A stretch of 64,000 nucleotides of DNA from Escherichia coli (GCF_003334815.1 NZ_QOWO01000006.1), one strand, 5' to 3'. Shown: positions 14,186-31,185, counted from the first letter of the stretch. Translations and numbers: made by a program. Notes: generated from the sequence alone by a model not told the origin.

Positions 14186-15247
14186 ATGCTCGAAATGTTG
14201 ATGCAATGGTATCGCCGCCGTTTTAGCGACCCGGAAGCGATTGCCTTGCTGGTTATTTTAGTTGCCGGATTTGGCATTATCTTTTTCTTTAGTGGCCTGC
14301 TTGCTCCGTTGCTGGTGGCTATTGTGCTGGCCTATTTGCTGGAATGGCCAACCGTGCGTCTGCAATCTATTGGCTGCTCCCGCCGCTGGGCGACGTCGAT
14401 TGTATTGGTGGTTTTCGTCGGTATATTGCTACTGATGGCGTTCGTGGTACTGCCTATCGCCTGGCAACAGGGCATCTACTTAATCCGCGATATGCCGGGG
14501 ATGCTCAATAAGCTTTCTGACTTTGCCGCCACGTTGCCGCGCCGCTATCCGGCGTTAATGGACGCGGGCATTATTGATGCAATGGCCGAAAATATGCGCA
14601 GTCGGATGCTGACCATGGGCGATTCGGTGGTGAAAATTTCCCTCGCCTCGCTGGTCGGTTTGCTGACCATAGCCGTCTATCTGGTGCTGGTGCCATTGAT
14701 GGTCTTCTTCCTGCTGAAAGACAAAGAGCAGATGCTGAACGCCGTTCGCCGGGTGCTGCCGCGTAACCGTGGGCTGGCAGGACAGGTGTGGAAGGAGATG
14801 AATCAACAAATCACCAACTATATCCGCGGCAAAGTGCTGGAGATGATCGTGGTGGGGATCGCCACCTGGCTGGGGTTCTTGCTCTTCGGGCTGAACTATT
14901 CGCTGCTGCTGGCAGTGCTGGTCGGCTTCTCGGTTCTTATTCCGTACATTGGCGCATTTGTGGTGACCATTCCGGTGGTTGGCGTGGCGCTATTCCAGTT
15001 TGGCGCAGGTACTGAATTCTGGAGCTGCTTCGCGGTGTATCTGATTATTCAGGCGCTGGACGGCAACCTGTTAGTGCCGGTGTTGTTCTCCGAAGCGGTT
15101 AACCTGCATCCGCTGGTGATTATTTTATCGGTGGTGATCTTCGGTGGTTTGTGGGGATTCTGGGGCGTATTCTTCGCCATTCCGTTGGCGACGCTGATCA
15201 AAGCCGTGATTCATGCCTGGCCCGATGGGCAAATCGCGCAAGAATAA
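14186..15247 (+). CDS. perM: AI-2E/PerM-family inner-membrane permease
   Basis: 353 aa polytopic membrane ORF; recognised as YfgO/PerM. Confidence 0.9.
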   Translation: MLEMLMQWYRRRFSDPEAIALLVILVAGFGIIFFFSGLLAPLLVAIVLAYLLEWPTVRLQSIGCSRRWATSIVLVVFVGILLLMAFVVLPIAWQQGIYLIRDMPGMLNKLSDFAATLPRRYPALMDAGIIDAMAENMRSRMLTMGDSVVKISLASLVGLLTIAVYLVLVPLMVFFLLKDKEQMLNAVRRVLPRNRGLAGQVWKEMNQQITNYIRGKVLEMIVVGIATWLGFLLFGLNYSLLLAVLVGFSVLIPYIGAFVVTIPVVGVALFQFGAGTEFWSCFAVYLIIQALDGNLLVPVLFSEAVNLHPLVIILSVVIFGGLWGFWGVFFAIPLATLIKAVIHAWPDGQIAQE

Positions 15248-15251
15248 TCTT

Positions 15252-15285
15252 CAGCCCGACGAACTGTTTCGCCGGGCTGATTTTT
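15252..15285. terminator. Hairpin terminator between convergent perM and focB
   Basis: CAGCCCG-acgaactgtttcgc-CGGGCTG followed by ATTTTT; the T-tract overlaps the focB stop codon. Confidence 0.55.
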
Positions 15286-16133
15286 CAGGGTTCCTGACGT
15301 AAATAAATAGCCCGATAACACATACTCACCAGCACCGCACCGCCGATAATATTACCCAGCATCACCGGGAGCAGATTGGCGGTAATAAAATGGCTGACCG
15401 TCAGTGCCGGAAAATTGTCTGCGCTACTGTGCGCCAGCTGCCAGAAGGGGGGAGGGGCGAAATGGCGAATGGCAATGGCGAACGGAATCACAAACAAATT
15501 GGCGATACAGTGCTCAAAGCCACTGGCGACAAACAGGGTGATGGGCAAAATCATGGCGACGATTTTGTCGCATAACGAACGCCCGCAATAACTCATCCAC
15601 AGCGCCAGGCAAACCATCAGATTGCACATAATGCCGAGGCTGACAGATTCAGTAAATGTATGATGCATTTTGCCCTCGGCGCAGTGTAAAACCGCGACTC
15701 CCCACATCGCGTTTTCACTCATCACCAGCCCGGAAAACCAGATTAACAAACTGAAACAGGCAATACCTGCCAGATTACCGCAGGCCACCAGAAGTGCGTT
15801 AATCAGCCAAGTTCGCCAACTAATAACGCCCCGACTTTTTGCCATCACCGTCATTACCGACGAGGTGAACAGGCTGGTGCCGCAAACCGCCAGCAAAATA
15901 AAGCCGAGTGTAAAGCAAAGGCCGCCCACCAGATGGGTTAATGCCTGTGAAGACGGGGCATCGGCGATAACGGAAAGGTAAAAAGTAAATCCGATCGCCA
16001 TAAACACGCCAGCGGACATCGCCATTAAAAAGACCGACACTTTACTGCGGGCAATTTTATGGGCGGCAATCCGTTCAGCGATTGCCGCTTTTCTGGCGCT
16101 CAACTGCAAGTCGAAAGAGAGTTTGTTTCTCAT
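15285..16133 (-). CDS. focB: Formate channel FocB (FNT family)
   Basis: 282 aa membrane protein; last gene of the hyf cluster by position. Confidence 0.92.
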   Translation of the reverse strand: MRNKLSFDLQLSARKAAIAERIAAHKIARSKVSVFLMAMSAGVFMAIGFTFYLSVIADAPSSQALTHLVGGLCFTLGFILLAVCGTSLFTSSVMTVMAKSRGVISWRTWLINALLVACGNLAGIACFSLLIWFSGLVMSENAMWGVAVLHCAEGKMHHTFTESVSLGIMCNLMVCLALWMSYCGRSLCDKIVAMILPITLFVASGFEHCIANLFVIPFAIAIRHFAPPPFWQLAHSSADNFPALTVSHFITANLLPVMLGNIIGGAVLVSMCYRAIYLRQEP

Positions 16134-16154
16134 GCATACTCCTGCAAAAGCAGA

Positions 16155-18167
16155 TTACAACACCTCGCGAACCGAGATCCCCAGCCGCTGCATTCGTGAC
16201 AGCAGCGTGGTGCGCTTCATCCCTAATCGCGTCGCTGCGCCACGGGGCCCGGCAACAATGCCATTGGTTTCTCGCAATACCTGAACAATGCGCTGACGTT
16301 CTTCTTCGTCATTCTCTGGCGTCGTCGGGTGCAGTAACTGCGCCATTGAACTGCGAAGCGCTGAATCTTCATTTAGCGTCGGCAGTAAACGGCTTTGTCG
16401 GACATTTAGATGTAAATTCAGACTGTTACCACGAGTCAACAGTACCGCCCGCTCAATCACGTTTTCCAGCTCGCGCACGTTGCCCGGCCAATCCCACGAC
16501 ATCAACTGGCGTAGTGCCTCGGTCGGGATGGCGTCAATTGCGCGATTCATATGGCGCGCCATTTTTTGCGTGAAATGTTTTGCTAAAAGAGGGATATCTT
16601 CCGGACGGTCGCGTAGCGGCGGCAATTCCAGTGGGAAGACATTCAGGCGATAAAAGAGATCGCTGCGAAACTGGCGATCTTCAACCATTTGCCACAAATC
16701 ACGGTTGGTGGCGGCAATGACTCTGACATTCACCGGGATCGTTCTACTCCCGCCGAGACGCTCAATCTCCCGCTCCTGCAATACGCGCAGCAGTTTAGGC
16801 TGAAGTTCTAACGGCAGATCGCCAATTTCATCGAGAAACAACGTGCCGCCATCGGCAATTTCAAAACGACCACGATGGGTATTAATCGCACCAGTAAACG
16901 CCCCTTTGTCATGACCGAATAACTCACTTTCCAGAAGACTGGCGGGGATGGCAGCGCAGTTGATTTTGACCAGCGGCTTGTCGCGTCGCGGGCTAAGTTG
17001 ATGGATCGCTCTGGCGATCACCTCTTTGCCAGTTCCGGTTTCACCACAAATCAACACCGTACTGTCGCTCTTCGCCACAATATCTACCTGCTGGAGCAGG
17101 TCTTCCATTGCCTGGCTTTGATAGATAATGTCACCGATGCCCAGATTCGAAAGGAGCTGCTCGCTAAGCTGGTGGTTTTCTTGCTGCAAACTTTCCTGCA
17201 AATCGGTCATGCTACGCCAGGCATCGGCATTGCCAACGGCAATAGCGATGCGATCGGCTATGTGTTGTAGTAGCTGGCAGTTTTCCTCACTAAAGAGAGT
17301 GGAAGAGGTATGCGCCAGCAACAATGCACCCGGTGTATGGTTGCCAAAGGTAAGCGGTATAAGGAGCGCAGATTCGCAGCCGTTAGATGCAAGTAAGAGT
17401 AATAACGGGTCGCGTTGCCAGAGAAACAGATCATCTGCACGGTGCGTCAAGGTCGGTTGTCGGGTTTGTAGCGTTTGTGTCAGCAATACACTTTCGCCAG
17501 GCATACAGCGTGGCAGACACGCACAATGTGAGGCAGAAAGATCGCTGCACCACAGGCTGAACTTCTCGTTCTTTCGATGATCGCCCAGTACCATACTGAC
17601 TGAAGCCAGACCGAAAAAATGATGGATCTCACGAGCGACGTCAGCGATCAGATCGTCGAGATCAAGATGTGACAGCACTGCATTAGTAATATCAACCAGT
17701 ACCCGATGATGATCGCGATCTTTCTCCAGCAAACGCAGCGCCACCTGCTGTTCTTCATCATTGAGCCATGATTGCAGAACCGGGGTGATTATCCGCGCCA
17801 GCCAGTTAAACAGTGTGCAATCCTGGGAAGTAAAACGACTGCCGTGGGTGCGAATAAAGCGTAGCTCCGCCATTCCACTACTGCCGAGAAGGACGGCGTG
17901 ACGCGAATAATCGACCATCTCGCCCTGATACTCTGTTGTTGCCGTCACATCGCTGCCATCATCATGGTAGCGGTAATAGAAGTTGCTTTTGAGAACATGC
18001 AGTTCAATAAGTTGTACCGGGCTGAACGGCGGCGGCAGCGGGATGAAGGCGCGTAATAAAGACGCCTTGCCGTGTTTCTGTGCTAACCGCTCCGCGAGCA
18101 TTCCGTTTACCGCTTCAATTGTTATTCCTTGTGGCGGGGCAAACATCGCCTCGTCTGACATAGCCAT
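16155..18167 (-). CDS. hyfR: Sigma54-dependent transcriptional activator HyfR (FhlA-like)
   Basis: 670 aa from ATG 18167; AAA+ sigma54-interaction domain (GETGTGKE Walker A, GAFTGA motif), C-terminal HTH. Confidence 0.92.
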
Positions 18168-18196
18168 CAACAGTCCTTATTAATGAGAAATCCTTC

Positions 18197-18610
18197 TCAC
18201 GCAATTTTTCTGGCCATCAGATAGATGGCCGGTTCCTGCACAATTTCATCCAACAGATGAATGAATTGAATGCTACGCGCCTGCCACACAGACGTCGCGT
18301 CATCCGCCAGTGGCGCGAATGCCCGGGTCAACAGGGCGGTGTGGCTGGCGTCAATAACAATCTCACCAAAAGTCATCACCCCCAGCATCTTACGTCGGGC
18401 TTGCTCCTCTTCGACCAGTGCAAGCCAATCTTCGTATTCCGTCAGTGGGCAGCGGAAGGCGACATTCAGACAATCAATCACGCCAACGTGATGGCCGATA
18501 GCTAGCGAGTAATACATTACCTGAGAGCTGTGTTCCGGCATCTCGTCGCTACTGGCGACAAACTTTTTTCGCAGCGTCCAGAAAACAATTTCCCCGCACA
18601 CTTCAGTCAT
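18197..18610 (-). CDS. hyfJ: Hydrogenase-4 maturation/assembly factor HyfJ (HycH-like)
   Basis: Track ORF 18197..18673; start taken at internal ATG ([17 protein letters not shown]...) giving 137 aa; overlaps hyfI stop by 8 nt. Confidence 0.85.
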
Positions 18611-19361
18611 GTAACCCCCGGAGTACGCGAAAGAGTTGCTGAACGATACTATTGAGACGTGGATCGTCGGCATCGCGCAACCAGGTGTTAACCCGATTTC
18701 CTGTAGGATCGTCGCTTAAATGGCGCAGGAGCCGATCGCAAATTTCTCGCCCCTGACGATAGCCCGCCAGCCGCCGCGCTTCTCGCTCAATGGCGATACG
18801 CTGTGATGGCGGGATCTGCGGCCACAACGGTTGCATAGTCACCCCGGTGGGATCGCGATAATCCACAGCGTGAATCTTCTGTTGCAGCAAACCGAGCGCC
18901 ACGGCGAAACCGTGAATGGTGGCGGCCGGTGTTGGCGGGCAGCCGGGGATCCAAACATCAATGGGGACAATGGTGTCGCTACCGCCCCAGACGCTGTAGA
19001 GATCGTGGAAAATACCGCCGCCGACACCGCACGCGCCGTAGGAAACACAAATTTTATGATCGGGGGCAGACTCATACGCCCGAAGTGCAGGCATACGCAT
19101 CGCCCGGGTGACTGCGCCAGTAAATAACAAAATATCGGCGTGACGCGGTGATGAAACAACCTTAATGCCAAAACGTTCTGCGTCGAATACTGGTGTAATG
19201 GCAGCAAAAATTTCGATTTCACAGGCGTTGCAGCCGCCGCAATCGACGCGATAAACGTAAGCCGAGCGACGGATATCCTGTAGCAAATGCCGCTTCATCT
19301 TTTGCGTTTGCTCGTCCAGCGTGATGGGCTGGCTGACATGTTGTGTAAGCACTGGACTCAT
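18603..19361 (-). CDS. hyfI: Hydrogenase-4 small subunit HyfI (NuoB-like)
   Basis: 252 aa; NuoB-type Fe-S cysteine pattern ([10 protein letters not shown] ... GCPP). Confidence 0.93.
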
Positions 19362-19903
19362 AGCTGCTCCTTAGCCACCAGCAGTACATCTGTATCGTCG
19401 TTGATCAGCGTCGCGCGTTGTTTGCATTCCGGGCAGACGCTCGCTTGCGCCCACAACATTTCGCGGTTTTGTGGCGCATTTTGTTGCTGTGCTAACAATT
19501 CAGCAGCCAGTGCGATGGTTTTTTGCGGGGCAAACGGGCGTTCGCAACGGCTGCAACGTTGTAGATGGAACGTCGCGCGGGTATAGAGATCGGCTTTATT
19601 GGTGACGGTCAGTTCAAAGTTATTGGTAAGCTGGATGGCTCTGGTCGGGCACACTTCTTCACAACGTCCGCAGTAAATACAACGCCCCAGATAGAGCTGC
19701 CAGGTGCGCGAATTTTGCTGGTCGTCGGTCTGGATAGTCAGCGCATTTGCCGGACAAGCACAGGCGCAGGCACCGCAGGCAATACATTGGCTGGGCATCA
19801 GGTCCGGTTTTCCGCGAAAGCCAGGGCTGACCTCCAGTGGCGCGAAGGGATATTTCACCGTCGCGGTTCCGGCGCGCATAATAGTTTTCAGTAACTTCAG
19901 CAT
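19358..19903 (-). CDS. hyfH: Hydrogenase-4 ferredoxin-type subunit HyfH (2x[4Fe-4S])
   Basis: 181 aa; two CxxCxxCxxxCP ferredoxin motifs ([24 protein letters not shown]). Confidence 0.93.
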
Positions 19904-19912
19904 CTTCTGTCC

Positions 19913-21580
19913 TTACTTCAGCGGCGAACGGTTACGATCAATGCCGTAGCGTTCGATCTCTTTATACGGCACGGTTTTTGACTGGCGCTTGCGCACATCT
20001 ACCAGCGTCACACGGTCGGCACAGGAGTAGCAGGGATCAAGGCTACCGATAATCAGCGGTGCGTCAGAAACGGTATTGCCGCGCAGCATGTAACGCAACA
20101 CCGGCCAGTTGGCGTAGGTGGCGGCACGGCAGCGCCAGCGGAACAATTTTTGGTTATCACCGAGCATGCTCCAGTGCACGTCTTCACCGCGTGGCGCTTC
20201 AACAAAGCCCAGCGCGAATGCGTGAGGTTTATAGCTAAAGCCTTCGGTCAGCAGTGGGGTATCCGGCATGTTGTCGAGGGCAAATTCCAGCATTGCCAGC
20301 GAATCAAACGTCTCTTTGACACGGACCATCACGCGGGAGAAAACATCGCCGCCGGTAAAGGTAAACAGTGTTTTTGGAATATTGCCGTAGTCGGCGTAGG
20401 GGTGATCAAAGCGCAAATCACGGGCGATTTGTCGGTCGAGAATGCCAATGCCCTGAGTGCGTTGTTCCATATTCGGCGTAGCAAGCAGCATCTCTACCAG
20501 CTCCGACACGTCGGCGCGCATCTCGCGCACCAGTTTCAGCGTTTGCAGACGTTGCTCTTTGAGAATATCGCGGCGAACACCACCAATCAGATTCAGACCG
20601 TAGGTTTTACGCGACCCGATCAGCAATTCCGCCATCGTCATCGACTTTTCCCGCACGCGGAAAAATTGCATAAAGCCGGTATCAAAACCAACGAAATGGC
20701 AGGAGAGGCCAAGGTTAAGCAAATGACTGTGTAGCCGTTCGACTTCCAGCAGAATCGAGCGAATAGTATGTGCTCGTTGCGGCACCTCAATCCCCAGTGC
20801 ATTTTCAACCGAATTGGTATAGGCCACACTGTGGGCAAAACCGCAAATCCCACACACGCGGTCCGATAAGAAGGTCACTTCGTTGTAGCCCATCCGCGTT
20901 TCTGCCAGTTTCTCCATGCCGCGATGGACATAAAACAGGCGGTAATCAGCATCGACAATTTGCTCGCCATCCACAAACAAGCGGAAGTGACCCGGTTCAT
21001 CGGAGGTGATATGCAGCGGGCCGACAGGGATCACCCGCGCATCGCTGTTGCCCTCATTGATAAACGGATACGTTTCGGAATCAGTCGTCGGTTCAGGGCG
21101 CAGTCGATAATCCATCGCATCTTTGCGCAGCGGATGCATATCTTCCGGCCAGTCATCGGGCAACACCAGGCGACGCTGATCCGGCAGGCCAACCGGAATC
21201 AGCCCGTACATATCGCGAATTTCTCGCTCGCCCCAGACCGCGGCAGGGACGCGCGGTGTGACTGACGGAAACTCCCGACTGTCGGCATCGACCAGCGCCT
21301 TCACCACAATCCAGCATTTTTCGGCCCCTTCCATTGAAAGGGCATAATAAACCGCGTAATGACCGTTAAGTGTCCGCTCGTCGTTGCCAAACAGGACCGG
21401 AAGCCAGCCATCATGTTGATAATAAAGATACTGTACAACGTCAGGCAGCAGATTGATTTTCACCGTAATGGTGACCTGTTCAGGCGTTTGTCGCTCTTCA
21501 TCCAGCACCGCGCCGGGGAACTGCGTTTTCAGGGCGGCGAGAATCGCTTCGCCACGATTTGACGATGAATTAACGTTCAC
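19913..21580 (-). CDS. hyfG: Hydrogenase-4 [NiFe] large subunit HyfG
   Basis: Track ORF 19913..21625; start assigned to GTG at 21580-21578 giving (M)[17 protein letters not shown]..., 555 aa; [11 protein letters not shown] Ni-binding N-terminal motif and C-terminal DPCYSC. Confidence 0.92.
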
Positions 21581-23150
21581 TGTGTTTCTCCGAAACAGAT
21601 GCGGTGCCTGAAGGCAAAAAATCATGCCAGGTGCTACGTTGTGCAGGCAGATCGTGCGTCCCTGAGAGGACTATAGTGGAAGCGCCCGCCAGGATCCTGA
21701 TGACAGGTTGTGGAATATGCGTTCCCATCGCCAGCATCATGACCAGCAGAATCACCATTGGCGAGGTGGTCAACCAGCCGAGATCACCCCGGTTAACGGC
21801 CTGCGGCGGTTTCGCCATTAACACCCGCGCAGCCATCCGTACCAGGCCCGCCAGCACCAGCGTTAACAGCAATAACAGCAGGACGATAATCAGCAGGTGA
21901 TTACGTGCCAGTCCGGCGGTAATGGTCATAAATTCGCTAAGAAAAATGTTGAAGGGCGGCATCCCTGCCAGCGCCAGCGCACCGCCGCCAAACAGCACGG
22001 CGGTAAATGGCATGATTTTGAGCATCCCACAGACGACGTTGAGATCGCGCGTGCCGTACTTGAGCAGTACATTGCCGGAACCGCAGAACAGCAGCGTTTT
22101 TGCCAGACTGTGGTTTAAGATGTGCAGCAGCGCGGCAAAAATTCCCAGCGGCCCGCCAATGCCTAGCTCCACCGCGACCAGCCCCATGTTCTCCACGCTG
22201 GAGTACGCCAGCAGACGCTTAATGTCCCGCTGTACCAGAATGAAAAATGCCGCCACGGCAACCGACAACATGCCGAAGATGAGCAACAACCGGTTGGGGA
22301 AATCGCTGCCGATGGCTTGGCAAATAATGATGTAATAGCGAATCAGCACCAACAGCGCGCAGTTCAGCAATACGGCGGAGAGCAGGGCGCTGACCGGACT
22401 CGGCGCTTCACTGTGAGCATCCGGCAGCCAGGCGTGCATGGGAAATAGCCCGGTTTTGGTACCAAAGCCAATTAGCAAAAACACAAAGGCCAACAGCATT
22501 AATGTTGGGTCAAGCAAGGACGATTGCTTAAGAACCTCGCTCCAGAATATCGCCATTTCTGCCTGCGGCATAACGCTGGCGGCGTTGGCGTATACCAGCA
22601 CGGTACCGAACAGACCAAAAGCGACACCAACAGTACAAATAATGATGTACTTCCATGCAGCTTCCAGCGATGAACGCTGACCGTAAATGCCTACCAGAAA
22701 CGCCGAGCTTAAGGTGGTGGCTTCGATCGCCGCCCACATCACAATCAGGTTATTGCTGGTAACAACCAGCAGCATGGTGAACAAAAACAGATGGAAGAAA
22801 CCGTAGTAATCGCACAGCGTAACGGGTGAAAGCTCGCCGTGTGCCACTTCATGACGCATGTAGCCAATCGAGTAAATACCGGTGAGAAAGCCAATCACAC
22901 CAAGAATGGCGAGGAACAAACCGCCCAGACCATCAATATGAAGCCACAGTCCCGCAGCGAATATTTCTCCTGCATCAGCGGCAGTTTGGACCACCCAGAG
23001 TGCCAGAATCAGCAGCAGTGTGATCCCTAAGCTATGTAATACGGTCACCGTGCGAGTCGCAGAAAGTCTCCGTTTCCGGCAGGCAAAACAGAGCAGCGAA
23101 AAAAGCAGCGGCGTGAGCAGGAGTAAAGCGAACATCACAGAATAACTCAT
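21570..23150 (-). CDS. hyfF: Hydrogenase-4 membrane subunit HyfF (NuoL/M/N antiporter-like)
   Basis: 526 aa polytopic membrane ORF. Confidence 0.93.
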
Positions 23151-23154
23151 CTCA

Positions 23155-23805
23155 TTATCCCTTCAGCGCGGTCAAGTTGTTCACGTCCAGCGTGCCGTGG
23201 GTACGCCATATTTTTCTTGCCAGTAACACCATCACAATGACGGCGAAGATGGCGTCGGTAGCGATACCTATTTCCACCAGTTCCGGTGCTCGCCAGGCAA
23301 GAAGCGCCAGCACCAGATGGGAGCCGTTTTCCATCAGGCAGTAACCAAAAATTTGCCGCAGGATATTGCGCTGGCTGACAATGCACAGCAGGCCAAGCAG
23401 AAAATGACCTAACGCTACCGCCAGCGCCGGTTTCAGCCCGGTAGCCATCGGTAGCTTCACGGGCTGAACGACAAATGCGCAAAGCAGGACAATTAACGCC
23501 GCGAGCAGTGCCATCATTGCCGGACCGAATAACGCTTTTTCCGGGATGTTCTGGGGAATATTTCGTGCAGCGTAAGTCATGATTAACGGTACCAGCAGCA
23601 CTTTGGTGATAAAGGCGCTGGCGGACCAGATCAGCAGTTGCTCTGCGGCGAACAGGCACGAGAGAGTGGCGAAAATAGACACCAGCACCAGTGACTGGCA
23701 GGCGTAAAATCCGCATGACAGGCGATAGCTTTTGACGCTAATCACAAACAGCGATGTCAGCATCATCAGTCCCGCCAGATTATTTACGATCATAGAACCG
23801 GTCAT
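23155..23805 (-). CDS. hyfE: Hydrogenase-4 membrane subunit HyfE
   Basis: 216 aa hydrophobic ORF. Confidence 0.92.
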
Positions 23806-23816
23806 TCATCATCTCC

Positions 23817-25256
23817 TTACTGCAACCAGGTCGCGGCGATTACGCTGGAAATCAGCGACATCACAATCAGTACAATCAACACCAGGCGCATTGATCCTGG
23901 CAGCGGTGCGGCATCGGCGACGGCCTCGCTCGGTTTGCCAGGCACAACGCGACCAAACCAGCGAATAAACCAGGCGAAACTGGCGACCGATTCAATCATC
24001 AGAAGAATCATGGCGGGCAGCAGGATCCAGTACTCCACTGACAACGCAAAACCGGCAGCAAACAGCGGGAATTTACTGAAGAAGCCGTTGAACGGCGGCA
24101 CGCCGGTAATCGCCAGCGCTGCCACGCAGAAACCCACGCCTGGCAACGGCAGGGTGTGCAATACGCCACGCAGACGCGGCAACAAGCGCGTGCCGCAGCT
24201 GTAACTCAGCGCACCTGCTACAAGGAAAAACAGGCTTTTAGCGAACGCGTGGTTGACGATGTAGGCGATGCTGCCCTCCAGCGCCAGCCGCGAGCCGAAG
24301 ATGGAGAGCGACAAGCCGAAGAACATCCAGCCAAGTTGAGTGATGGTCGACCAGGCTAGCAACCGCTTCATATCCTGCTGTGGCAAATACATCAGAAAGC
24401 CATAAAGAATGGTGACCAGTGCCATGACCATGCCAACGCCGCCAATCACATGCGGGATATTGCCGCCGTCGATAATAGCGCGGGCAAAAATGTAAACGCC
24501 CACTTTCACCATCGATGCGGCGTGGAGATAGGCGCTGATCGGTGTTGGCGCTTCCATTGCGTCCGGTAGCCACGCTTGCATCGGTAGCTGGGCCGATTTC
24601 CCCCACGCGGCAAACAGGATGCCGCCATAAACCAGATAACGTGCGTCGCCGTGTAACTCGCTCATCGCGCTAAGCGCAAACGTTCCGGTCTGCAAAAACA
24701 GCGTGGCGGCGGCAAGATACAACCCCAACGAGCCGATATGAGTGATAAGTAACGCTTTTAGTGCTGAACGCTGCGCTTTATCGCTCTGGTAATAACTGAT
24801 CAACGCCCAGGAGCAGCCGCCTGTAATTTCAAAAAACAACAACTGACCGAGCAGCGTCGAGGAGAGTACCAGTCCCGCCATCGCGCCGATAAACACCAGT
24901 AAAAATGCGTAATAACGATTCGTGCCGTTATGCGGGTGTTCGCGATTTTTATCCGTCAGATAACCCGTGGAGTAGATCGTGACCAGCAAACCGAGAAACA
25001 CCACCACAAACAGAATCAGCGTACTCACGCGATCAATGACCAGGCCAAACAACGCCACATCCCCCACGTTGACCAACGTCAACGTGACGGCAACTTTATC
25101 GGCCTGATAAAACGCGGAGATCAGTGACAACATGCACAGCGTGGTCAGCGCGGCGAACAAAACCCCCCATTCGGCGGCCCGACGTTGTGGCGAAAACGAA
25201 ACGACCAGTGCGCCGATAAAAGGCAGCAATAACGTCGTCAGAGCAAGATTTTCCAT
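23817..25256 (-). CDS. hyfD: Hydrogenase-4 membrane subunit HyfD (NuoL/M/N antiporter-like)
   Basis: 479 aa polytopic membrane ORF. Confidence 0.93.
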   Translation of the reverse strand: MENLALTTLLLPFIGALVVSFSPQRRAAEWGVLFAALTTLCMLSLISAFYQADKVAVTLTLVNVGDVALFGLVIDRVSTLILFVVVFLGLLVTIYSTGYLTDKNREHPHNGTNRYYAFLLVFIGAMAGLVLSSTLLGQLLFFEITGGCSWALISYYQSDKAQRSALKALLITHIGSLGLYLAAATLFLQTGTFALSAMSELHGDARYLVYGGILFAAWGKSAQLPMQAWLPDAMEAPTPISAYLHAASMVKVGVYIFARAIIDGGNIPHVIGGVGMVMALVTILYGFLMYLPQQDMKRLLAWSTITQLGWMFFGLSLSIFGSRLALEGSIAYIVNHAFAKSLFFLVAGALSYSCGTRLLPRLRGVLHTLPLPGVGFCVAALAITGVPPFNGFFSKFPLFAAGFALSVEYWILLPAMILLMIESVASFAWFIRWFGRVVPGKPSEAVADAAPLPGSMRLVLIVLIVMSLISSVIAATWLQ

Positions 25257-25272
25257 ATTCCGTCAGTGCTCC

Positions 25273-26220
25273 TTACAGACCGGTTAACCAGAAGACCCAT
25301 GCAAGCGCAGCAAGGCTGAAGCCAAGCCAGGTCACATGGTGAATGAGTAAAAAACGCCCGCGTGCCAGCGTGTTTTCTGCGATTGAGGCCAGTACAAAAA
25401 TCAGCAAAACCTTGAGCAGCGTAACGACAAGTGAAGTCAGCAGGCAGGCGAGAGAAAGTTCTTGCGCGCGCCCAAAGGGCAGAAACAGGGCCACAAACAG
25501 TGATGCCATCACGACCTGTTTCAGCCCCAGCCCCCATTTCGCTAGCGCCAGCCCGGCACCGGAATATTCGGTCAGCGGGCCTTCCTGTAATTCCTGTTCT
25601 GCTTCAGCAACATCAAAGGGAATTTTTCCCATCTCAATGAAGCAGGCAAAACCACAGGCCAGTAACGCCAGTACGGTGGTTAGCGGCGAGTTCCAGCCCA
25701 TCGCCAGCGTATTGCTGATCATCTCGATATGCGTGGAACCTGCTATCAGCGCCAATACCAGCAGTGAGAGAATAAGCATTGGTTCGACCAGAATGCCGAG
25801 CGTCAACTCGCGACTGGCACCGACTCCCGCAAACGGACTTCCGGTATCCAGCCCGGAAAGAGCAAAGAAAAAACGAAACAGGGCAAGAAGATAGATAAGG
25901 GTGATCAGATCGCCGCCGCCCGCAAAAGGGGAAACGGTAATAAACAGTGGTAAGGCCATCGCCAGCACCAGCATGCTGCTGATTAATACCCACGGCATCA
26001 GGCGGAACATCAGACCTGAAGATGTCGGCGCAACTTCCTGGCGTTTAAACAGTTTGTGGATATCGCGATAATCCTGCCAGATCCCCGGCCCGCGGCGGGA
26101 GTGCATACGCGCGCGTATCTGCCGGGAAATACCCGTAAAAAGTGGGGTTAGCATCAGCAGAATCACGGCCTGTGCTAACGCAAAAATGACCAGATATCCG
26201 TCGCAAAGAGTTTGTCTCAT
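25273..26220 (-). CDS. hyfC: Hydrogenase-4 membrane subunit HyfC (NuoH-like)
   Basis: Track ORF 25273..26241; start taken at ATG 26220 (MRQTLCDGYLVIFALAQ...) giving 315 aa. Confidence 0.9.
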   Translation of the reverse strand: MRQTLCDGYLVIFALAQAVILLMLTPLFTGISRQIRARMHSRRGPGIWQDYRDIHKLFKRQEVAPTSSGLMFRLMPWVLISSMLVLAMALPLFITVSPFAGGGDLITLIYLLALFRFFFALSGLDTGSPFAGVGASRELTLGILVEPMLILSLLVLALIAGSTHIEMISNTLAMGWNSPLTTVLALLACGFACFIEMGKIPFDVAEAEQELQEGPLTEYSGAGLALAKWGLGLKQVVMASLFVALFLPFGRAQELSLACLLTSLVVTLLKVLLIFVLASIAENTLARGRFLLIHHVTWLGFSLAALAWVFWLTGL

Positions 26221-26230
26221 GGTGATTTCC

Positions 26231-28249
26231 TTAGACGGCAATAGCGATTAGCAGCACAACCAGTGCGGCGACCACATACAGGCAATAGAGACGAAAGTCG
26301 CCGCTTTGCAGATGCTGTATTTCTTTGGCCAGCCGTTGGGTGGCGCTCACGATGGGGCGGATCACCCGCTCATCCCAGAAGGGTTCTGTGCTCTGAGCCC
26401 TGGCGGTGACGTGCGCAAGACCTTTATTTAGCCTCAGCGTAGGGTCGAGCTGTTGTCGTAGACGAAATAGCGCAGAAAAGACCACACGCAGCGGCTGCAT
26501 CACGCCATTGCCTGACGGGGCCATCGCATTTTCCCAGCCGTAGCCGCATGCCCAGGCATCTCCTGTGCGACGAAACGCTGCGCGGCGCGAACGACACCAC
26601 AGCCAGTAAAGGCCAGGCAGCAAAGGCATCGCCAGTAGTAACAGCAACAGTAATGAGGGGGTGACCTGTGTATGAAACGTGCCGGGTACAAGTGCTATTC
26701 CGCTGGCGACAGTGGCGGGAGGGGTATTGGTAAACGCATGGGCAATATGCATTATCTTCGGTGCCAGCCAACTGGCACTAAGCGCAATTAATACGCAGAG
26801 TGCCGCGAGCAGTAGCATGGCGACGATCATCGTATTTGGCACTTCCTGTGCCTCTTCAGCGTGTGTACTGCGCGGCGCACCACAGAAAGTAATACCGTAC
26901 ATTTTTACGAAGCACATTACTGCCAGCCCACCAGTGACTGCCAGCATTACCATAGCAATAGGACCCGCAAGTTGTAGCGCTACGGCTTCCACACGACTTA
27001 GTGAGAACAGCGACTGCCAGGTGTACCATTCGCTGATAAAACCATTCAGCGGAGGAATGGCTGATATCGCGAGGCAACCAATCAGGCATGCTGCGGCTGT
27101 CCACGGCATCCGTTTCGCTAGTGCCCCCATTTTTTCCATGTCGTGGGTATGCAAACGCGAAATAATCGCTCCCGCGCCGAGAAATAGCAGCCCTTTGAAC
27201 AGCGCATGGTTGAGCAGATGAAACAGTGCGCCGAGCAGTCCAACCACGGTGAGCAGCGGGTCGTGCAGTGACAGACCGACCATCGCCACACCGACTGCCA
27301 GCAAAATAATGCCGACGTTTTCGACGGTACTCCAGGCCAGCAGCCGTTTGATATCCTGTTCCGCCAGCGCATATAGCACGCCCAGGAGCGCGGAGATTGC
27401 GCCGATCGCCATCACCAGAATGCCCCACCACAGAGGCAAACCCGTTTGCGCCAGCAGATCCATCGCTACTTTCAGGATGCCGAAAATACCTATTTTGACC
27501 ATTACGCCAGACATCAACGCCGAAGCGTGCGATGGTGCGGCAGGGTGAGCGCGCGGCAACCAGCTGTGCAACGGCATCATCCCGGCTTTCGCGCCAAAAC
27601 CGAAAAAGGCCAGCAGGAACACCGCCGACGCCAGCCCCGGAGAAAGTGAAAGCGTGCGGAAACTGGCAAAATCGAGGCTGCCGCTTTCGCGCCCCATCAG
27701 CAAGAAGGCGATCATTATCAGCACCGATCCGGCGTGGGCGATAAAAAAGTAGAGCATGCCAGCGTTGATCGACGTTTTATCCTGCCTGGCAATGACCAGA
27801 AACCAGGAAGACAGCGACATCATTTCAAACAGCACGATGAACCAAAAAGCGTTGTCCATCACCAGCAGGGCAACCATCGATGCGATGAAAATATTCATAA
27901 AGAAGCCCATCGCCGCCGCGCCTTTGCCCTCGTATTCGCGCATATAAGTCAATGAATAGAGAGAACAAACCACCACCAGCAAGGAGATAACCAGCACCAT
28001 AAATGCCGAGAGGCTATCCATTCGCAGGGTTAAATCGGCAAATTCAAAAGGGGTGGCAAAACGGGCGACTAAAGTTACACCAGCATGTAATTGCGTAATT
28101 CCGCTGATGATGCCAATCACGCCGCCCACCAGCGATGTGATGCCGGAAAGCTTAATAGCCAGTCTGTCCAGACCGAGTAAAAACAGCGAAGCCAGACTAG
28201 CAAACAGATAGAGAATCAGCGACCAGGTTAATAATTGCAGGGCATCCAT
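26231..28249 (-). CDS. hyfB: Hydrogenase-4 membrane subunit HyfB (NuoL/M/N antiporter-like)
   Basis: 672 aa polytopic membrane ORF. Confidence 0.93.
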   Translation of the reverse strand: MDALQLLTWSLILYLFASLASLFLLGLDRLAIKLSGITSLVGGVIGIISGITQLHAGVTLVARFATPFEFADLTLRMDSLSAFMVLVISLLVVVCSLYSLTYMREYEGKGAAAMGFFMNIFIASMVALLVMDNAFWFIVLFEMMSLSSWFLVIARQDKTSINAGMLYFFIAHAGSVLIMIAFLLMGRESGSLDFASFRTLSLSPGLASAVFLLAFFGFGAKAGMMPLHSWLPRAHPAAPSHASALMSGVMVKIGIFGILKVAMDLLAQTGLPLWWGILVMAIGAISALLGVLYALAEQDIKRLLAWSTVENVGIILLAVGVAMVGLSLHDPLLTVVGLLGALFHLLNHALFKGLLFLGAGAIISRLHTHDMEKMGALAKRMPWTAAACLIGCLAISAIPPLNGFISEWYTWQSLFSLSRVEAVALQLAGPIAMVMLAVTGGLAVMCFVKMYGITFCGAPRSTHAEEAQEVPNTMIVAMLLLAALCVLIALSASWLAPKIMHIAHAFTNTPPATVASGIALVPGTFHTQVTPSLLLLLLLAMPLLPGLYWLWCRSRRAAFRRTGDAWACGYGWENAMAPSGNGVMQPLRVVFSALFRLRQQLDPTLRLNKGLAHVTARAQSTEPFWDERVIRPIVSATQRLAKEIQHLQSGDFRLYCLYVVAALVVLLIAIAV

Positions 28250-28866
28250 TAGCGTTGCTCCTGAGTGAGGGAAAGGGGATCCTCCCCGCCATTGGCAAAC
28301 CAGCTTGCGGCAAGGCGCTGTTTTTCTTTCATCTGACGTTGCAGGCTATCACCGGTGATCAGCCGTAACGCCTGATTCGGGCAAGCGCGAACGCAGGCCG
28401 GACCTTCTGGCAAGAAATCACACAGGTCGCATTTCACCGCGACGGTCTGGACACCAGGTTCCCAGCGCAGCAAAGCATGTTGTGTTGGCGCGTTTTCTTC
28501 GCCGTCTTTGAGTGAGCCTTCAGCCTGAAAAACATATTGCGCATGGGCATTCACCGGACGGCTTCCTGAAGCGCTGATTGCGCCAAATGGGCAGACCACG
28601 GCGCAAAGCTTGCAGCCAATACAGAGGCTTTCGTTGAGTTGGATCGCATCATCCCTCTGAGAGATGGCATTGACCGGGCAGACCTGCAGGCAAGGGGCTT
28701 CCTCACAGTGATGACACACGACAGGGGCAGTGATTGTTGACGTCTTCGCCAGGGCCAGGCGCGGGTGTTGCTGTAAACCTTGCGTTTTATGCACGTCCGA
28801 ACAGGCAGCGAGACAGGTATTACATCCTGTACACCACAGTGGTTCGGCCACCACAAAGCGGTTCAT
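28249..28866 (-). CDS. hyfA: Hydrogenase-4 Fe-S subunit HyfA (4x[4Fe-4S] ferredoxin)
   Basis: Track ORF 28249..28905; start taken at ATG 28866 (MNRFVVAEPLWCTGCNTCLAACS...) giving 205 aa; AAGGAG 8 nt upstream. Confidence 0.9.
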   Translation of the reverse strand: MNRFVVAEPLWCTGCNTCLAACSDVHKTQGLQQHPRLALAKTSTITAPVVCHHCEEAPCLQVCPVNAISQRDDAIQLNESLCIGCKLCAVVCPFGAISASGSRPVNAHAQYVFQAEGSLKDGEENAPTQHALLRWEPGVQTVAVKCDLCDFLPEGPACVRACPNQALRLITGDSLQRQMKEKQRLAASWFANGGEDPLSLTQEQR

Positions 28867-28906
28867 GTCGGCTCCTTGAAAATGATATGAAACATTGCAT
28901 TTCATA

Positions 28907-28923
28907 TTGCATAAAGGATGCCA
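28907..28923 (-). promoter_or_regulatory. Sigma54 (-24/-12) promoter of the hyf operon
   Basis: Minus strand reads TGGCAT-CCTTT-ATGCA (consensus TGGCAC-N5-TTGCA; GG and GC correctly spaced, 2 mismatches), 41-57 nt upstream of the hyfA ATG; HyfR (sigma54 activator) is encoded in the same cluster. Confidence 0.6.
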
Positions 28924-29048
28924 TTCTGATTAACTCAATATATTCAATAAGTTATGTATTAACTGGATTCTGAACGGTACAAAAATGATGGTCATTAACG
29001 TTCAGCAAAAAATGGATTCGACACCCGTGTCGCAGGGGAAAGCGAGAA

Positions 29049-29064
29049 TGTGATCTTGATCACG
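29049..29064. promoter_or_regulatory. CRP-like palindrome TGTGATC-TT-GATCACg upstream of hyf promoter
   Basis: TGTGA-N6-TCAC arrangement, near-perfect dyad, ~185 bp upstream of hyfA ATG in the bcp-hyfA intergenic region. Confidence 0.4.
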
Positions 29065-29118
29065 AGAAGTGAGGTATGCTGGCCGCAAGCGCAGCCAGCA
29101 CGGAATGGAGCAAAGTAA

Positions 29119-29589
29119 TCAGGCGTGTTCTTTCAGCCAGTTCAGCACAACGTCGTGGTGATTGCTGGTTTTGAAATCGTCAAAGACATGTTCGATTTTG
29201 CCATCAGCGTCAATCAGGAAGCTGATGCGATGAATGCCATCGTAGGTTTTGCCCATGAAGGACTTTTCACCCCAGACGCCGAATTGTTCGCACACCTGGT
29301 GGTCCTCATCAGACAGGAGCGTAAAGTTAAGCAGCTCTTTTTCCGCAAAACGGGAGAGTTTTTCGGGTTTATCGGTGCTGATACCCAGCACATCAACGCC
29401 CGCTTTTTTCAACTCATCCATGTTATCGCGTAAGCCGCAGGCCTGTACGGTACAGCCGGGGGTCATGGCTTTCGGGTAGAAATAAACCAGAACACGCTGT
29501 CCCTGGAAGTCGGTCAAATTAACTTGTTCTCCGTCTTGATCCGGCAAGCTAAATTTCGGTGCGATATCACCGGCTTTCAGTGGATTCAT
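29119..29589 (-). CDS. bcp: Thiol peroxidase Bcp (peroxiredoxin)
   Basis: 156 aa, MNPLKAGDIAPKFSLPDQDGEQVNL...FYPKAMTPGCTVQAC (peroxidatic Cys). Confidence 0.95.
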   Translation of the reverse strand: MNPLKAGDIAPKFSLPDQDGEQVNLTDFQGQRVLVYFYPKAMTPGCTVQACGLRDNMDELKKAGVDVLGISTDKPEKLSRFAEKELLNFTLLSDEDHQVCEQFGVWGEKSFMGKTYDGIHRISFLIDADGKIEHVFDDFKTSNHHDVVLNWLKEHA

Positions 29590-30161
29590 TACTTAACTCC
29601 ATCCTGTTCATCATGTTGGGAATAATTGACGACGTTAATACTGCCTTGTGCATTGAGTTCTGTACATAGGGCTTTGAACGCTTGCTCAATATTTGCTGCG
29701 TCCGCAGATGCGGGGCTGTGGGCGGTTATCTGAATATGCAACTGCGCAGCCCGTTCATTTTCAGCAGGTTGCGTGCGCGACACCAGCTCCGCAATGTTCA
29801 TATGATGCGCGTCGAAAAGTGCTGTGAAGCGTTCAATTAAATGCGGGGAGTCTGCCACATCGACCTGAACCCAGACAGATGCTGGCATTGGCGGACGCGG
29901 ACGCGCCGTCGTGCGCTTCATCACGATTAAAAGATCCAGTTCGGCACCTTTCAACGGTAACGTTGATTCAATCAGAGTAATGGCATTCCATGAACCGGAA
30001 AGCAGCATAATAAACGTGAACTCTTCTCCCAGCATCGCCAGGCGACTGTCTTCAATATTACAGCCGCAACTACTGACATGACGGGTGATGGTGTTCACAA
30101 TTCCAGGGCGATCGGCACCCAACGCAGTGATCACCAGATAATGTTGCGATGACAGTGTCAA
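29589..30161 (-). CDS. gcvR: Glycine cleavage system transcriptional repressor GcvR; TTG start
   Basis: Track ORF 29589..30227; start assigned to TTG at 30161-30159 giving (M)TLSSQHYLVITALGADRPGIVN..., 190 aa; stop TAA overlaps bcp ATG as TAATG. Confidence 0.85.
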   Translation of the reverse strand: MTLSSQHYLVITALGADRPGIVNTITRHVSSCGCNIEDSRLAMLGEEFTFIMLLSGSWNAITLIESTLPLKGAELDLLIVMKRTTARPRPPMPASVWVQVDVADSPHLIERFTALFDAHHMNIAELVSRTQPAENERAAQLHIQITAHSPASADAANIEQAFKALCTELNAQGSINVVNYSQHDEQDGVK

Positions 30162-30306
30162 ACTGGTTATTCCTTTAAGGGGTGAGTTGTTCTTAAGGAA
30201 AGCATAAAAAAAACATGCATACAACAATCAGAACGGTTCTGTCTGCTTGCTTTTAATGCCATACCAAACGTACCATTGAGACACTTGTTTGCACAGAGGA
30301 TGGCCC

Positions 30307-31185
30307 ATGTTCACGGGAAGTATTGTCGCGATTGTTACTCCGATGGATGAAAAAGGTAATGTCTGTCGGGCTAGCTTGAAAAAACTGATTGATTATCATG
30401 TCGCCAGCGGTACTTCGGCGATCGTTTCTGTTGGCACCACTGGCGAGTCCGCTACCTTAAATCATGACGAACATGCTGATGTGGTGATGATGACGCTGGA
30501 TCTGGCTGATGGGCGCATTCCGGTAATTGCCGGGACCGGCGCTAACGCTACTGCGGAAGCCATTAGCCTGACGCAGCGCTTCAATGACAGTGGTATCGTC
30601 GGCTGCCTGACGGTAACCCCTTACTACAATCGTCCGTCGCAAGAAGGTTTGTATCAGCATTTCAAAGCCATCGCTGAGCATACTGACCTGCCGCAAATTC
30701 TGTATAATGTGCCGTCCCGTACTGGCTGCGATCTGCTCCCGGAAACGGTGGGCCGTCTGGCGAAAGTAAAAAATATTATCGGAATCAAAGAGGCAACAGG
30801 GAACTTAACGCGTGTAAACCAGATCAAAGAGCTGGTTTCAGATGATTTTGTTCTGCTGAGCGGCGATGATGCGAGCGCGCTGGACTTCATGCAATTGGGC
30901 GGTCATGGGGTTATTTCCGTTACGGCTAACGTCGCAGCGCGTGATATGGCCCAGATGTGCAAACTGGCAGCAGAAGGGCATTTTGCCGAGGCACGCGTTA
31001 TTAATCAGCGTCTGATGCCATTACACAACAAACTATTTGTCGAACCCAATCCAATCCCGGTGAAATGGGCATGTAAGGAACTGGGTCTTGTGGCGACCGA
31101 TACGCTGCGCCTGCCAATGACACCAATCACCGACAGTGGTCGTGAGACGGTCAGAGCGGCGCTTAAGCATGCCGGTTTGCTGTAA
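30307..31185 (+). CDS. dapA: 4-hydroxy-tetrahydrodipicolinate synthase
   Basis: ATG 30307, [19 protein letters not shown]..., 292 aa. Confidence 0.95.

Follow-up and report, generated by a model that had tools for sequence, protein, structure and literature searches.

The textbook candidate for a formate hydrogenlyase that resembles complex I and possibly conserves energy is the hyf operon, reportedly described in Escherichia coli K-12 by Andrews et al. in 1997. To our knowledge, 25 years of work on K-12 have shown no hydrogenase-4 (Hyd-4) activity, and attention has shifted to Trabulsiella and Pectobacterium as models. Here we describe the hyf locus at positions 15285-28866 of a 64,000-nucleotide stretch of E. 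coli DNA (NZ_QOWO01000006.1; this whole stretch is hereafter the window) and find that its hyfG gene, which encodes the [NiFe] large subunit, carries a 48-bp in-frame deletion that is shared with K-12 and may explain why hydrogenase-4 has never been seen working in laboratory strains. The locus is ordinary in itself, and its interest lies in a concrete, cheap test of a question dating from 1997.

The closest systems with demonstrated activity are two formate hydrogenlyase-2 (FHL-2) complexes, those of Trabulsiella guamensis and Pectobacterium atrosepticum, both of which evolve H2 (PMC7384014; 10.1101/563510). The T. guamensis complex requires FdhH (10.1101/563510), and the HyfG protein of P. 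atrosepticum requires HycI-type processing (PMC7654741). Both operons encode a protease of their own, HyfK, and that of T. guamensis lacks focB. The loci that we fetched from T. guamensis and Pectobacterium peruviense (L024 and L046) share with the window the hyfA-J core in the same order, including five membrane subunits, with proteins that are 48-83% identical, and their HyfG proteins retain a 16-residue segment that is missing from HyfG of the window. Formate hydrogenlyase-1 (FHL-1), which is encoded by hyc (7Z0S/7Z0T), has two membrane subunits rather than five, but its large subunit HycE aligns end to end with HyfG (E = 7.6e-279) and has the same nickel motifs, canopy arginine and C-terminal assembly peptide; HycE also has the segment with Arg395 that the window HyfG lacks.

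The identification of the locus as the hyfABCDEFGHIJ-hyfR-focB cluster of E. coli is supported by the agreement of the list of open reading frames (ORFs), the RefSeq annotation of strain M217 and the result of comparing the sequence with MG1655 base by base; the coordinates that a first-pass annotation of the window had assigned to the 12 genes are exact. All 12 genes lie on the minus strand, as do all the features for which coordinates are given below, in the K-12 order between bcp and yfgO, and the cluster is flanked by bepA-yfgO on one side and by bcp-gcvR-dapA on the other side, as in K-12. The genes are tightly packed: the previously noted overlaps between hyfI and hyfJ (8 nt), hyfF and hyfG (11 nt) and hyfA and hyfB (1 nt) are confirmed, an overlap of 4 nt between hyfH and hyfI can be added to these, and the other gaps are 4-29 nt. 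The MG1655 operon (b2481-b2492) consists of the same 12 genes, with the same order, lengths, overlaps and flanks and with the same 48-bp-deleted hyfG. The window and MG1655 differ by 3 nt in 18.5 kb (positions 28054, 20020 and 18600), all non-synonymous: the window has T521A in HyfG and E4V in HyfJ, whereas MG1655 has T66P in HyfB. Several E. coli chromosomes, that of strain M217 among them, match the hyf region with 100% identity. Thus, the locus is already known and the identity of its genes is certain: this chromosomal hyf operon belongs to a phylogroup-A-like E. coli and is nearly identical to that of K-12. A chance pattern is ruled out, the operon being real and annotated.

None of the 12 ORFs contains an internal stop, and the lengths of the products (205, 672, 315, 479, 216, 526, 555, 181, 252, 137, 670 and 282 aa for HyfA-J, HyfR and FocB, respectively) all match MG1655. 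The first-pass annotation had called the cluster complete and intact and had proposed a comparison with the reference HyfA-J as a check for frameshifts and premature stops. Such a comparison detects no disruption, and it passes because the K-12 reference itself carries the lesion in hyfG; the description of the cluster as intact stands for the reading frames but fails for hyfG, with its 48-bp in-frame deletion and the substitutions T321I and T521A. Agreement with a reference genome is, then, no proof that a gene is intact.

In the window and in K-12, hyfG (19913-21580) is 1668 bp long and encodes 555 aa, compared to 1716 bp and 571 aa in O157:H7 strain 7636, MRSN346638 and FCI48. The protein alignment of the short and long forms shows a single length difference, namely, 16 residues, ARDYSPVGPLIRGSGF, that are missing after Ile385. 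In the long allele, a 10-bp direct repeat, GCCCGTGATT, occurs in two perfect copies that lie 48 bp apart and enclose the codons for this segment; only one copy is left in the window, at 20416-20425, where it marks the deletion scar, and such a reduction from two copies to one is the hallmark of deletions arising between short direct repeats. The segment that would restore the gene is GCCCGTGATTATAGCCCTGTAGGGCCGCTGATCCGCGGCAGTGGTTTT, placed after hyfG nt 1155. The long-hyfG alleles of E. coli (for example, those of O157:H7 strain 7636, AR_0137, M21170 and 23CRST011) occupy the same locus with the same gene order and 98-99% nucleotide identity, and differ from the window in encoding a 571-aa HyfG with ARDYSPVGPLIRGSGF and with threonine at position 321.

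Comparison with homologs shows how unusual the short form is. The alignment of the window HyfG with HycE (PDB 7z0s_E) includes a 16-residue gap, as does the alignment with MbhL of Pyrococcus furiosus, whereas the long HyfG aligns to both without a gap. In none of the 80 HyfG and HycE proteins from other species (one fetched locus from each of 80 species; 73-92% identity) are these 16 columns gapped, and 10 of them are invariant. Among the more distant members of the family, represented by 119 sequences that span the region (clusters at 50% identity, 30-74% identical to HyfG), 118 have no gap in the segment, the glycine corresponding to Gly393 of the long form is present in 119 of 119 and the arginine corresponding to Arg397 in 118 of 119. 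Of the 12 genes, only hyfG shows a consistent indel in the comparison with 40 operons from other species.

The position of the event, between short direct repeats, is one where assembly or sequencing artefacts and duplications can also arise, so that the 48-bp difference might be taken for an artefact, or for an insertion in the long allele. The same junction is found, however, in 2115 independent complete genomes, including those of MG1655 and DH5alpha, and the additional 16 residues of the long form are no copy of the adjoining sequence but align position by position to those of HycE, MbhL and all other homologs. Given these genomes and the homolog counts (0 of 80 and 118 of 119), we reject both versions of this explanation, the probability of which appears negligible. 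Because the segment is present in HycE, MbhL and the other relatives, the change is a loss in the allele of the window and K-12; the 48-bp deletion is certain, and its direction and origin are established.

The lost segment contains a residue with an assigned role. By alignment, Arg397 of the long allele corresponds to Arg395 of HycE and to R297 of NDUFS2. In the cryo-electron microscopy study of FHL-1, Arg395, His284 and Glu437 of HycE form a proton pathway that reaches the canopy residues at the [NiFe] site, and the Arg395 pathway is conserved in formate hydrogenlyases, membrane-bound hydrogenases (MBH), soluble hydrogenases and complex I (PMC9474812). The segment with the pattern ARD-x-S-x-VGP-xx-R-x-SG, which includes the proton-pathway arginine and is one defining feature of group 4a large subunits, is absent from the window HyfG. 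In the AlphaFold model of the long HyfG, the segment is ordered (predicted local distance difference test score, pLDDT, of 97) and runs from a helix end through a loop into a short helix on which the arginine lies. Other hallmarks of the large subunit, which is of the NuoC-NuoD fusion type, are all found in the window HyfG: the nickel-iron ligand motifs, N-terminal RxCGxCxxxH at residue 241 and C-terminal DPCYSCADR at residue 515, the latter followed by 32 residues, which form the C-terminal assembly peptide, and the motif EAPRG at residue 461. This motif holds the equivalent of HycE Arg478, the canopy arginine (PMC9474812).

To identify other unusual changes, each Hyf protein was scanned for residues that differ from a residue conserved in at least 95% of about 70 homologs from other species. 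In HyfG, T321I occurs in every deletion allele and in no long allele, at a position that is invariant in 80-81 homologs. The second substitution, T521A (codon GCC, 20018-20020), which converts DPCYSC-T-DR to DPCYSC-A-DR, is confined to the lineage of the window; threonine is found in 81 of 81 homologs and in each of the 16 E. coli alleles set beside that of the window (MG1655 and 15 more). Residue 521 adjoins the nickel ligand Cys520 and is located two residues before Arg523 of the cleavage site. Among the 16 other E. coli alleles compared, E4 of HyfJ is likewise universal, and E4V (codon 18599-18601) is accordingly derived in the lineage of the window, whereas T66P in HyfB is specific to MG1655 and, when polarized against the 15 other E. 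coli alleles, derived there.

The distribution of the deletion was assessed across 5426 complete E. coli genomes, all of which match the flanks of the cluster. At least 80% of the cluster is present in 4292 of these (79%), and the remaining 1134 (21%), the type strain ATCC 11775 among them, lack the entire cluster, with bcp 98 bp from yfgO. The undeleted hyfG segment is found in 2007 genomes (37%) and the deletion junction in 2115 (39%). A third lesion, a 208-bp frameshifting deletion in hyfD that corresponds to positions 24292-24499 of the window (codons 253-321) and is flanked by a GCG triplet, occurs in 863 genomes (16%) and, judging from match lengths, on both hyfG backgrounds. In the genomes without the cluster, the whole 13.75 kb including the promoter is gone (e.g., locus L005, 2748-2847), with breakpoints that coincide with the hexamer TTCAGC at 15250-15255 and 29001-29006 of the window; the 80 bp beside bcp in these genomes are alignable but diverged, and lack the palindromes. 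Because the gcvR-bcp-hyf-yfgO-bepA synteny extends to Citrobacter, Kosakonia, Enterobacter and Phytobacter, the absence of the cluster is a loss. The loss of hyf in the F/G/B2 lineage has been reported previously (PMC6896753).

Further damage is widespread. In 18 loci compared by annotation, 8 of the 10 with the deletion allele contain additional frameshifts, stops or insertion sequences (IS), with only the window sequence and MG1655 fully open, whereas 6 of the 8 long-allele loci are fully intact and in the other two, of the 55989 type, hyfC, hyfD or focB is damaged (Fisher p = 0.054, the samples not being independent). The frameshifts and stops in the other deletion-allele strains affect focB, hyfR, hyfB, hyfC, hyfD, hyfF and hyfI. 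The ratio of non-synonymous to synonymous polymorphism (pN/pS) in pairwise comparisons of hyfG is 0.30 among the deletion alleles compared to 0.05 among the long alleles, a contrast that is inflated by the low divergence among the deletion alleles. The hyf operon is decaying across E. coli, and the window locus would stand at an early stage of a process that has gone further in most other lineages.

Several additional observations were made on these loci. Some of the closest chromosomes, for example that of strain 52F4 (locus L002, 13750-15114), carry an IS4-like IS421 between hyfB and a shortened hyfA, at the point corresponding to window position 28249, where the window has none. The 55989-type long-hyfG alleles (L091 and L092) have an hyfH of 540 bp instead of 546 bp and frameshifts in hyfD and focB, along with an internal hyfC stop in 55989 only, so that a full-length hyfG is no guarantee of an intact operon. 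Enterobacterial-type hyfG genes were also encountered in records labelled Chryseobacterium sp. 18061 and Desulfovibrio desulfuricans metagenome-assembled genome (L030 and L080; 84% and 74% identity, respectively), which are likely cases of contamination or mislabelling.

The following scheme can be proposed for the operon and its failure. The formate-responsive sigma54 activators HyfR and FhlA would bind the upstream sites and, aided by an IHF-type bend, open the sigma54 promoter 5' of hyfA to yield one long transcript. The soluble arm, composed of HyfA, HyfG, HyfH and HyfI, would receive electrons from formate dehydrogenase-H and use them for proton reduction at the HyfG [NiFe] site, and HyfB, HyfC, HyfD, HyfE and HyfF would form a complex-I-like membrane arm, with three antiporter-like subunits; the same transcript would also encode HyfJ as HycH-like chaperone, HyfR as regulator and FocB as formate channel. 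In the allele of the window and K-12, recombination or slippage between the 10-bp direct repeats has removed 48 bp from hyfG and, with them, an ordered helix-loop-turn of 16 residues that bears the proton-pathway arginine; T321I belongs to the same lineage, with T521A added in that of the window. We consider it likely that the window hyf locus, complete as it is in its ORFs, encodes a catalytically dead or severely impaired FHL-2 (hydrogenase-4) and is in early decay. Judging from conservation, the catalytic activity or the assembly of HyfG has probably been lost, and the operon is probably not merely transcriptionally silent but encodes a defective catalytic subunit.

A defective HyfG fits the failure of promoter replacement to elicit Hyd-4 activity in K-12. 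Finney et al. equipped MG1655 and MC4100 derivatives with the hyc promoter or the T5 promoter for hyf, swapped in the HycE tail and supplied extra HycI or HyfK, and in no case was H2 produced, for which they blamed additional unknown biosynthetic problems (PMC7654741). The alignment figure in that work covers only the last 93 residues (PMC7654741), and therefore a gap located some 170 residues before the C-terminus would not show. Our full-text literature search found no mention of the natural hyfG deletion in K-12, although the 1997 paper of Andrews et al. and several reviews lay outside that search, so an earlier notice is possible.

Several considerations weigh against a disabled enzyme. 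All 12 frames are still open in the K-12-like lineage, and their products could still be under selection. In the AlphaFold model of the short HyfG, the global fold is kept, and the local confidence falls from 97 to 80; this prediction, being driven by the alignment, is not decisive with respect to stability. Phenotypes of hyf mutants have been described in K-12 backgrounds, and FHL-2 has been treated as active in stationary phase (PMC10758574; PMC11841067). The contrast in secondary lesions between deletion and long alleles is statistically weak, coming from samples that are not independent, and that in pN/pS is suggestive only. Finally, many conserved-site substitutions are common to all E. 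coli alleles, including the long ones: 22 in HyfB (e.g., H298Q, H307S and Y411W), 7 in HyfD (e.g., G53D and Y432R), 4 in HyfA and 4 in HyfR, with HyfF contributing 5 substitutions of which only S74G is common to all alleles; therefore, the hyfG deletion may not be the only defect or the first one. Along the same lines, identity to the nearest relatives, from Citrobacter, is 58-89% for the Hyf proteins of E. coli and 93-95% for the syntenic Bcp, GcvR, YfgO and BepA, which suggests accelerated evolution of the whole hyf operon in Escherichia.

The main rival explanation is that the short HyfG tolerates the deletion and the operon encodes a fully functional, ion-translocating FHL-2 that is expressed only rarely, at low pH, with formate or in stationary phase. 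The 12 open and tightly coupled ORFs, the conserved regulatory region, the fold predicted by AlphaFold and the presence of the nickel-binding CxxC pairs, the canopy PRG and the antiporter residues all agree with such an enzyme, as do the phenotypes of hyfG mutants in BW25113 (PMC10758574) and the recent reviews that treat the E. coli FHL-2 as active and possibly energy-conserving (PMC11841067). Those phenotypes are indirect, however, and the hycE mutant of the same strain makes no H2 in any assay (PMC10758574), nor did forced expression in K-12 yield any (PMC7654741). Moreover, the segment with the invariant glycine and the proton-pathway arginine is gapped in none of the 80 homologs from other species and in one of the 119 family representatives, and the lineages with the deletion allele gather frameshifts, stops and IS insertions. 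We therefore regard a tolerated deletion as unlikely.

Alternatively, the hydrogenase might have been lost while parts of the operon were kept for another role, such as the FocB channel, cross-talk between HyfR and the FhlA regulon, or a contribution of the membrane arm to proton and potassium fluxes without H2 catalysis, which would keep the K-12-like frames open. The products of focB and hyfR are identical to those of K-12 and match their families, the membrane subunits retain the key charged residues, and the phenotypes reported for focB and hyfG mutants concern sensitivity to N,N'-dicyclohexylcarbodiimide (DCCD) and ion fluxes, not H2 yield (PMC10758574; PMC12396580). No part of the operon is consistently protected, though: the genes disrupted in other deletion-allele strains include both focB and hyfR, along with those for membrane subunits, and 21% of E. 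coli genomes manage without the cluster. The open frames of a single recent lineage could simply reflect too little time for decay, and a retained secondary role seems rather improbable.

If, as we favor, the K-12 allele is disabled, the negative results obtained with K-12 are explained, the physiological claims derived from K-12 hyfG mutants need to be re-read, and E. coli strains that retain the undeleted allele are where FHL-2 function in this species is most naturally tested. More tentatively, as a possibility that is somewhat less likely to hold than to fail, the hyfG deletion, present in K-12 and in about 39% of E. coli, would be the main reason why FHL-2 has never been demonstrated in laboratory E. 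coli, strains with the 571-aa form (about 37%) would encode an active, possibly energy-conserving FHL-2, and the 48-bp repair would switch the K-12 enzyme on.

The membrane arm has the composition specific to FHL-2, namely, HyfE together with three antiporter-like subunits. HyfB (26231-28249; 672 aa; NF005086, 977 bits against a cut-off of 667), HyfD (23817-25256; 479 aa, full length in the window; NF005097, 811 bits against 430) and HyfF (21570-23150; 526 aa; NF005041, 1177 bits against 951) all match their NCBIfam profiles over the full length, above the curated cut-offs, and show strong secondary matches to NuoL, NuoM, NuoN and MrpA/D. They keep the glutamate of transmembrane helix (TM) 5, the lysine of TM7 and the lysine or glutamate of TM12: E142, K221 and E407 in HyfB, E143, K220 and K395 in HyfD, and E143, K232 and E406 in HyfF, the aligned counterparts being E144, K229 and K399 in NuoL, E144, K234 and E407 in NuoM, and E133, K217 and K395 in NuoN. 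The prediction of three NuoL/M/N-type subunits thus holds at the residue level, as judged from these alignments. HyfE (23155-23805; 216 aa) is the small membrane subunit specific to FHL-2 (NF008556, 369 bits against 136), and HyfC (25273-26220; 315 aa), annotated as such in RefSeq, is a NuoH-like membrane subunit that matches NuoH models (E = 3.5e-28) below their cut-offs.

In the soluble arm, HyfA (28249-28866; 205 aa) is a poly-ferredoxin of the HycB/HydN type, with HydN/AegA-type matches and 16 cysteines in four cluster motifs, and HyfH (19358-19903; 181 aa) is a 2x[4Fe-4S] ferredoxin-like subunit of the NuoI/HycF type with two CxxCxxCxxxC motifs that passes its NCBIfam cut-off (NF006076, 362 bits against 270). 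HyfI (18603-19361; 252 aa) is a NuoB-like small subunit with Cys41, 44, 47, 105, 111 and 141, and passes only a NuoB subfamily model (NF005012, 121.6 bits against 116). The matches of HyfA to HydN/HycB relatives and of HyfG to NuoC-NuoD relatives, like that of HyfC to NuoH, are below the cut-offs of the respective models. HyfJ (18197-18610; 137 aa) is a HycH-like maturation protein (NF011664 HycH, 208 bits against 145).

The remaining two genes bear out the first-pass annotation, which had assigned to the cluster its own sigma54 activator and formate channel. HyfR (16155-18167; 670 aa), identical to its K-12 counterpart, contains GAF (169-311), Sigma54_activat (347-513), AAA-lid and HTH_8 (621-661) domains, with a Walker A motif, GETGTGKE, at 375 and GAFTGA at 422. 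The score of HyfR with the FhlA equivalog model NF011958 is 642 bits, below the cut-off of 830, with a match that begins at residue 101, and hence HyfR is a paralog of FhlA; the possibility that it is FhlA itself was rejected. FocB (15285-16133; 282 aa), identical to that of MG1655, is a full-length member of the formate/nitrite transporter (FNT) channel family that scores 649 bits with NF007261 FocB, against a curated cut-off of 499, and 321 bits with the FocA model; transport of formate is predicted from family membership.

Upstream of hyfA, the region shows the organization of a sigma54-dependent operon, with a -24 GG/-12 GC element suitably spaced from the first gene and sites further upstream. 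The -24/-12 element, TGGCATCCTTTATGCA (28908-28923), predicts that transcription starts near 28897, some 31 nt ahead of the hyfA ATG; this codon is preceded by the Shine-Dalgarno sequence AAGGAG (28872-28877). Further upstream are a putative IHF-like box, CATAACTTATTGAAT (28942-28956), which lies between promoter and upstream sites, shows partial conservation across 13 taxa and was matched to the consensus by eye; a conserved box, TGACCATCATTTTTGT (28979-28994), a candidate activator site that is kept from E. coli to Phytobacter; a palindrome, CGACACGGGTGTCG (29019-29032), a candidate upstream activating site for HyfR/FhlA that lies some 125-135 bp upstream of the predicted start, with GACAC-N4-TGxCG kept in 13 taxa; and a partly conserved putative CRP-like palindrome, CGTGATCAAGATCACA (29049-29064). 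In the alignment of this region from 13 taxa (E. coli, Citrobacter, Klebsiella indica, Kosakonia, Enterobacter, Phytobacter, Trabulsiella, Atlantibacter and Pectobacterium), the TGG..A/TGC element, the IHF-like box, the TGACCATCATTTTTGT box and the GACAC-N4-TGxCG palindrome stand out. In the whole window, the sigma54 pattern occurs at chance level (50 found and 48.6 expected), and therefore the assignment of the hyfA promoter rests on position, conservation and genomic SELEX (gSELEX), in which the bcp-hyfA spacer is the highest peak for RpoN holoenzyme across the K-12 genome (PMC8743547).

Internal sigma70-like promoters in the operon number 7 compared to 9.5 expected by chance, lending no support to internal starts; a weak hyfR promoter has been reported in the literature. 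An Rfam scan of 14000-30500 at E <= 1 found no RNA family. Sites that combine a hairpin with a T-run are in excess in the region 14900-29300, with 42 found and 18 expected from shuffled sequences, and are mostly on the coding strand inside the membrane-protein genes; this excess is probably a codon-composition effect, caused by Phe/Leu-rich T runs, rather than a set of real terminators. The strongest terminator-like site of the region is a hairpin with a 13-bp stem at 15251-15280, 4 nt after the focB stop, which is shared with the convergent yfgO. The tight spacing of the genes, the predicted sigma54 promoter 5' of hyfA and this hairpin after focB fit a single transcription unit.

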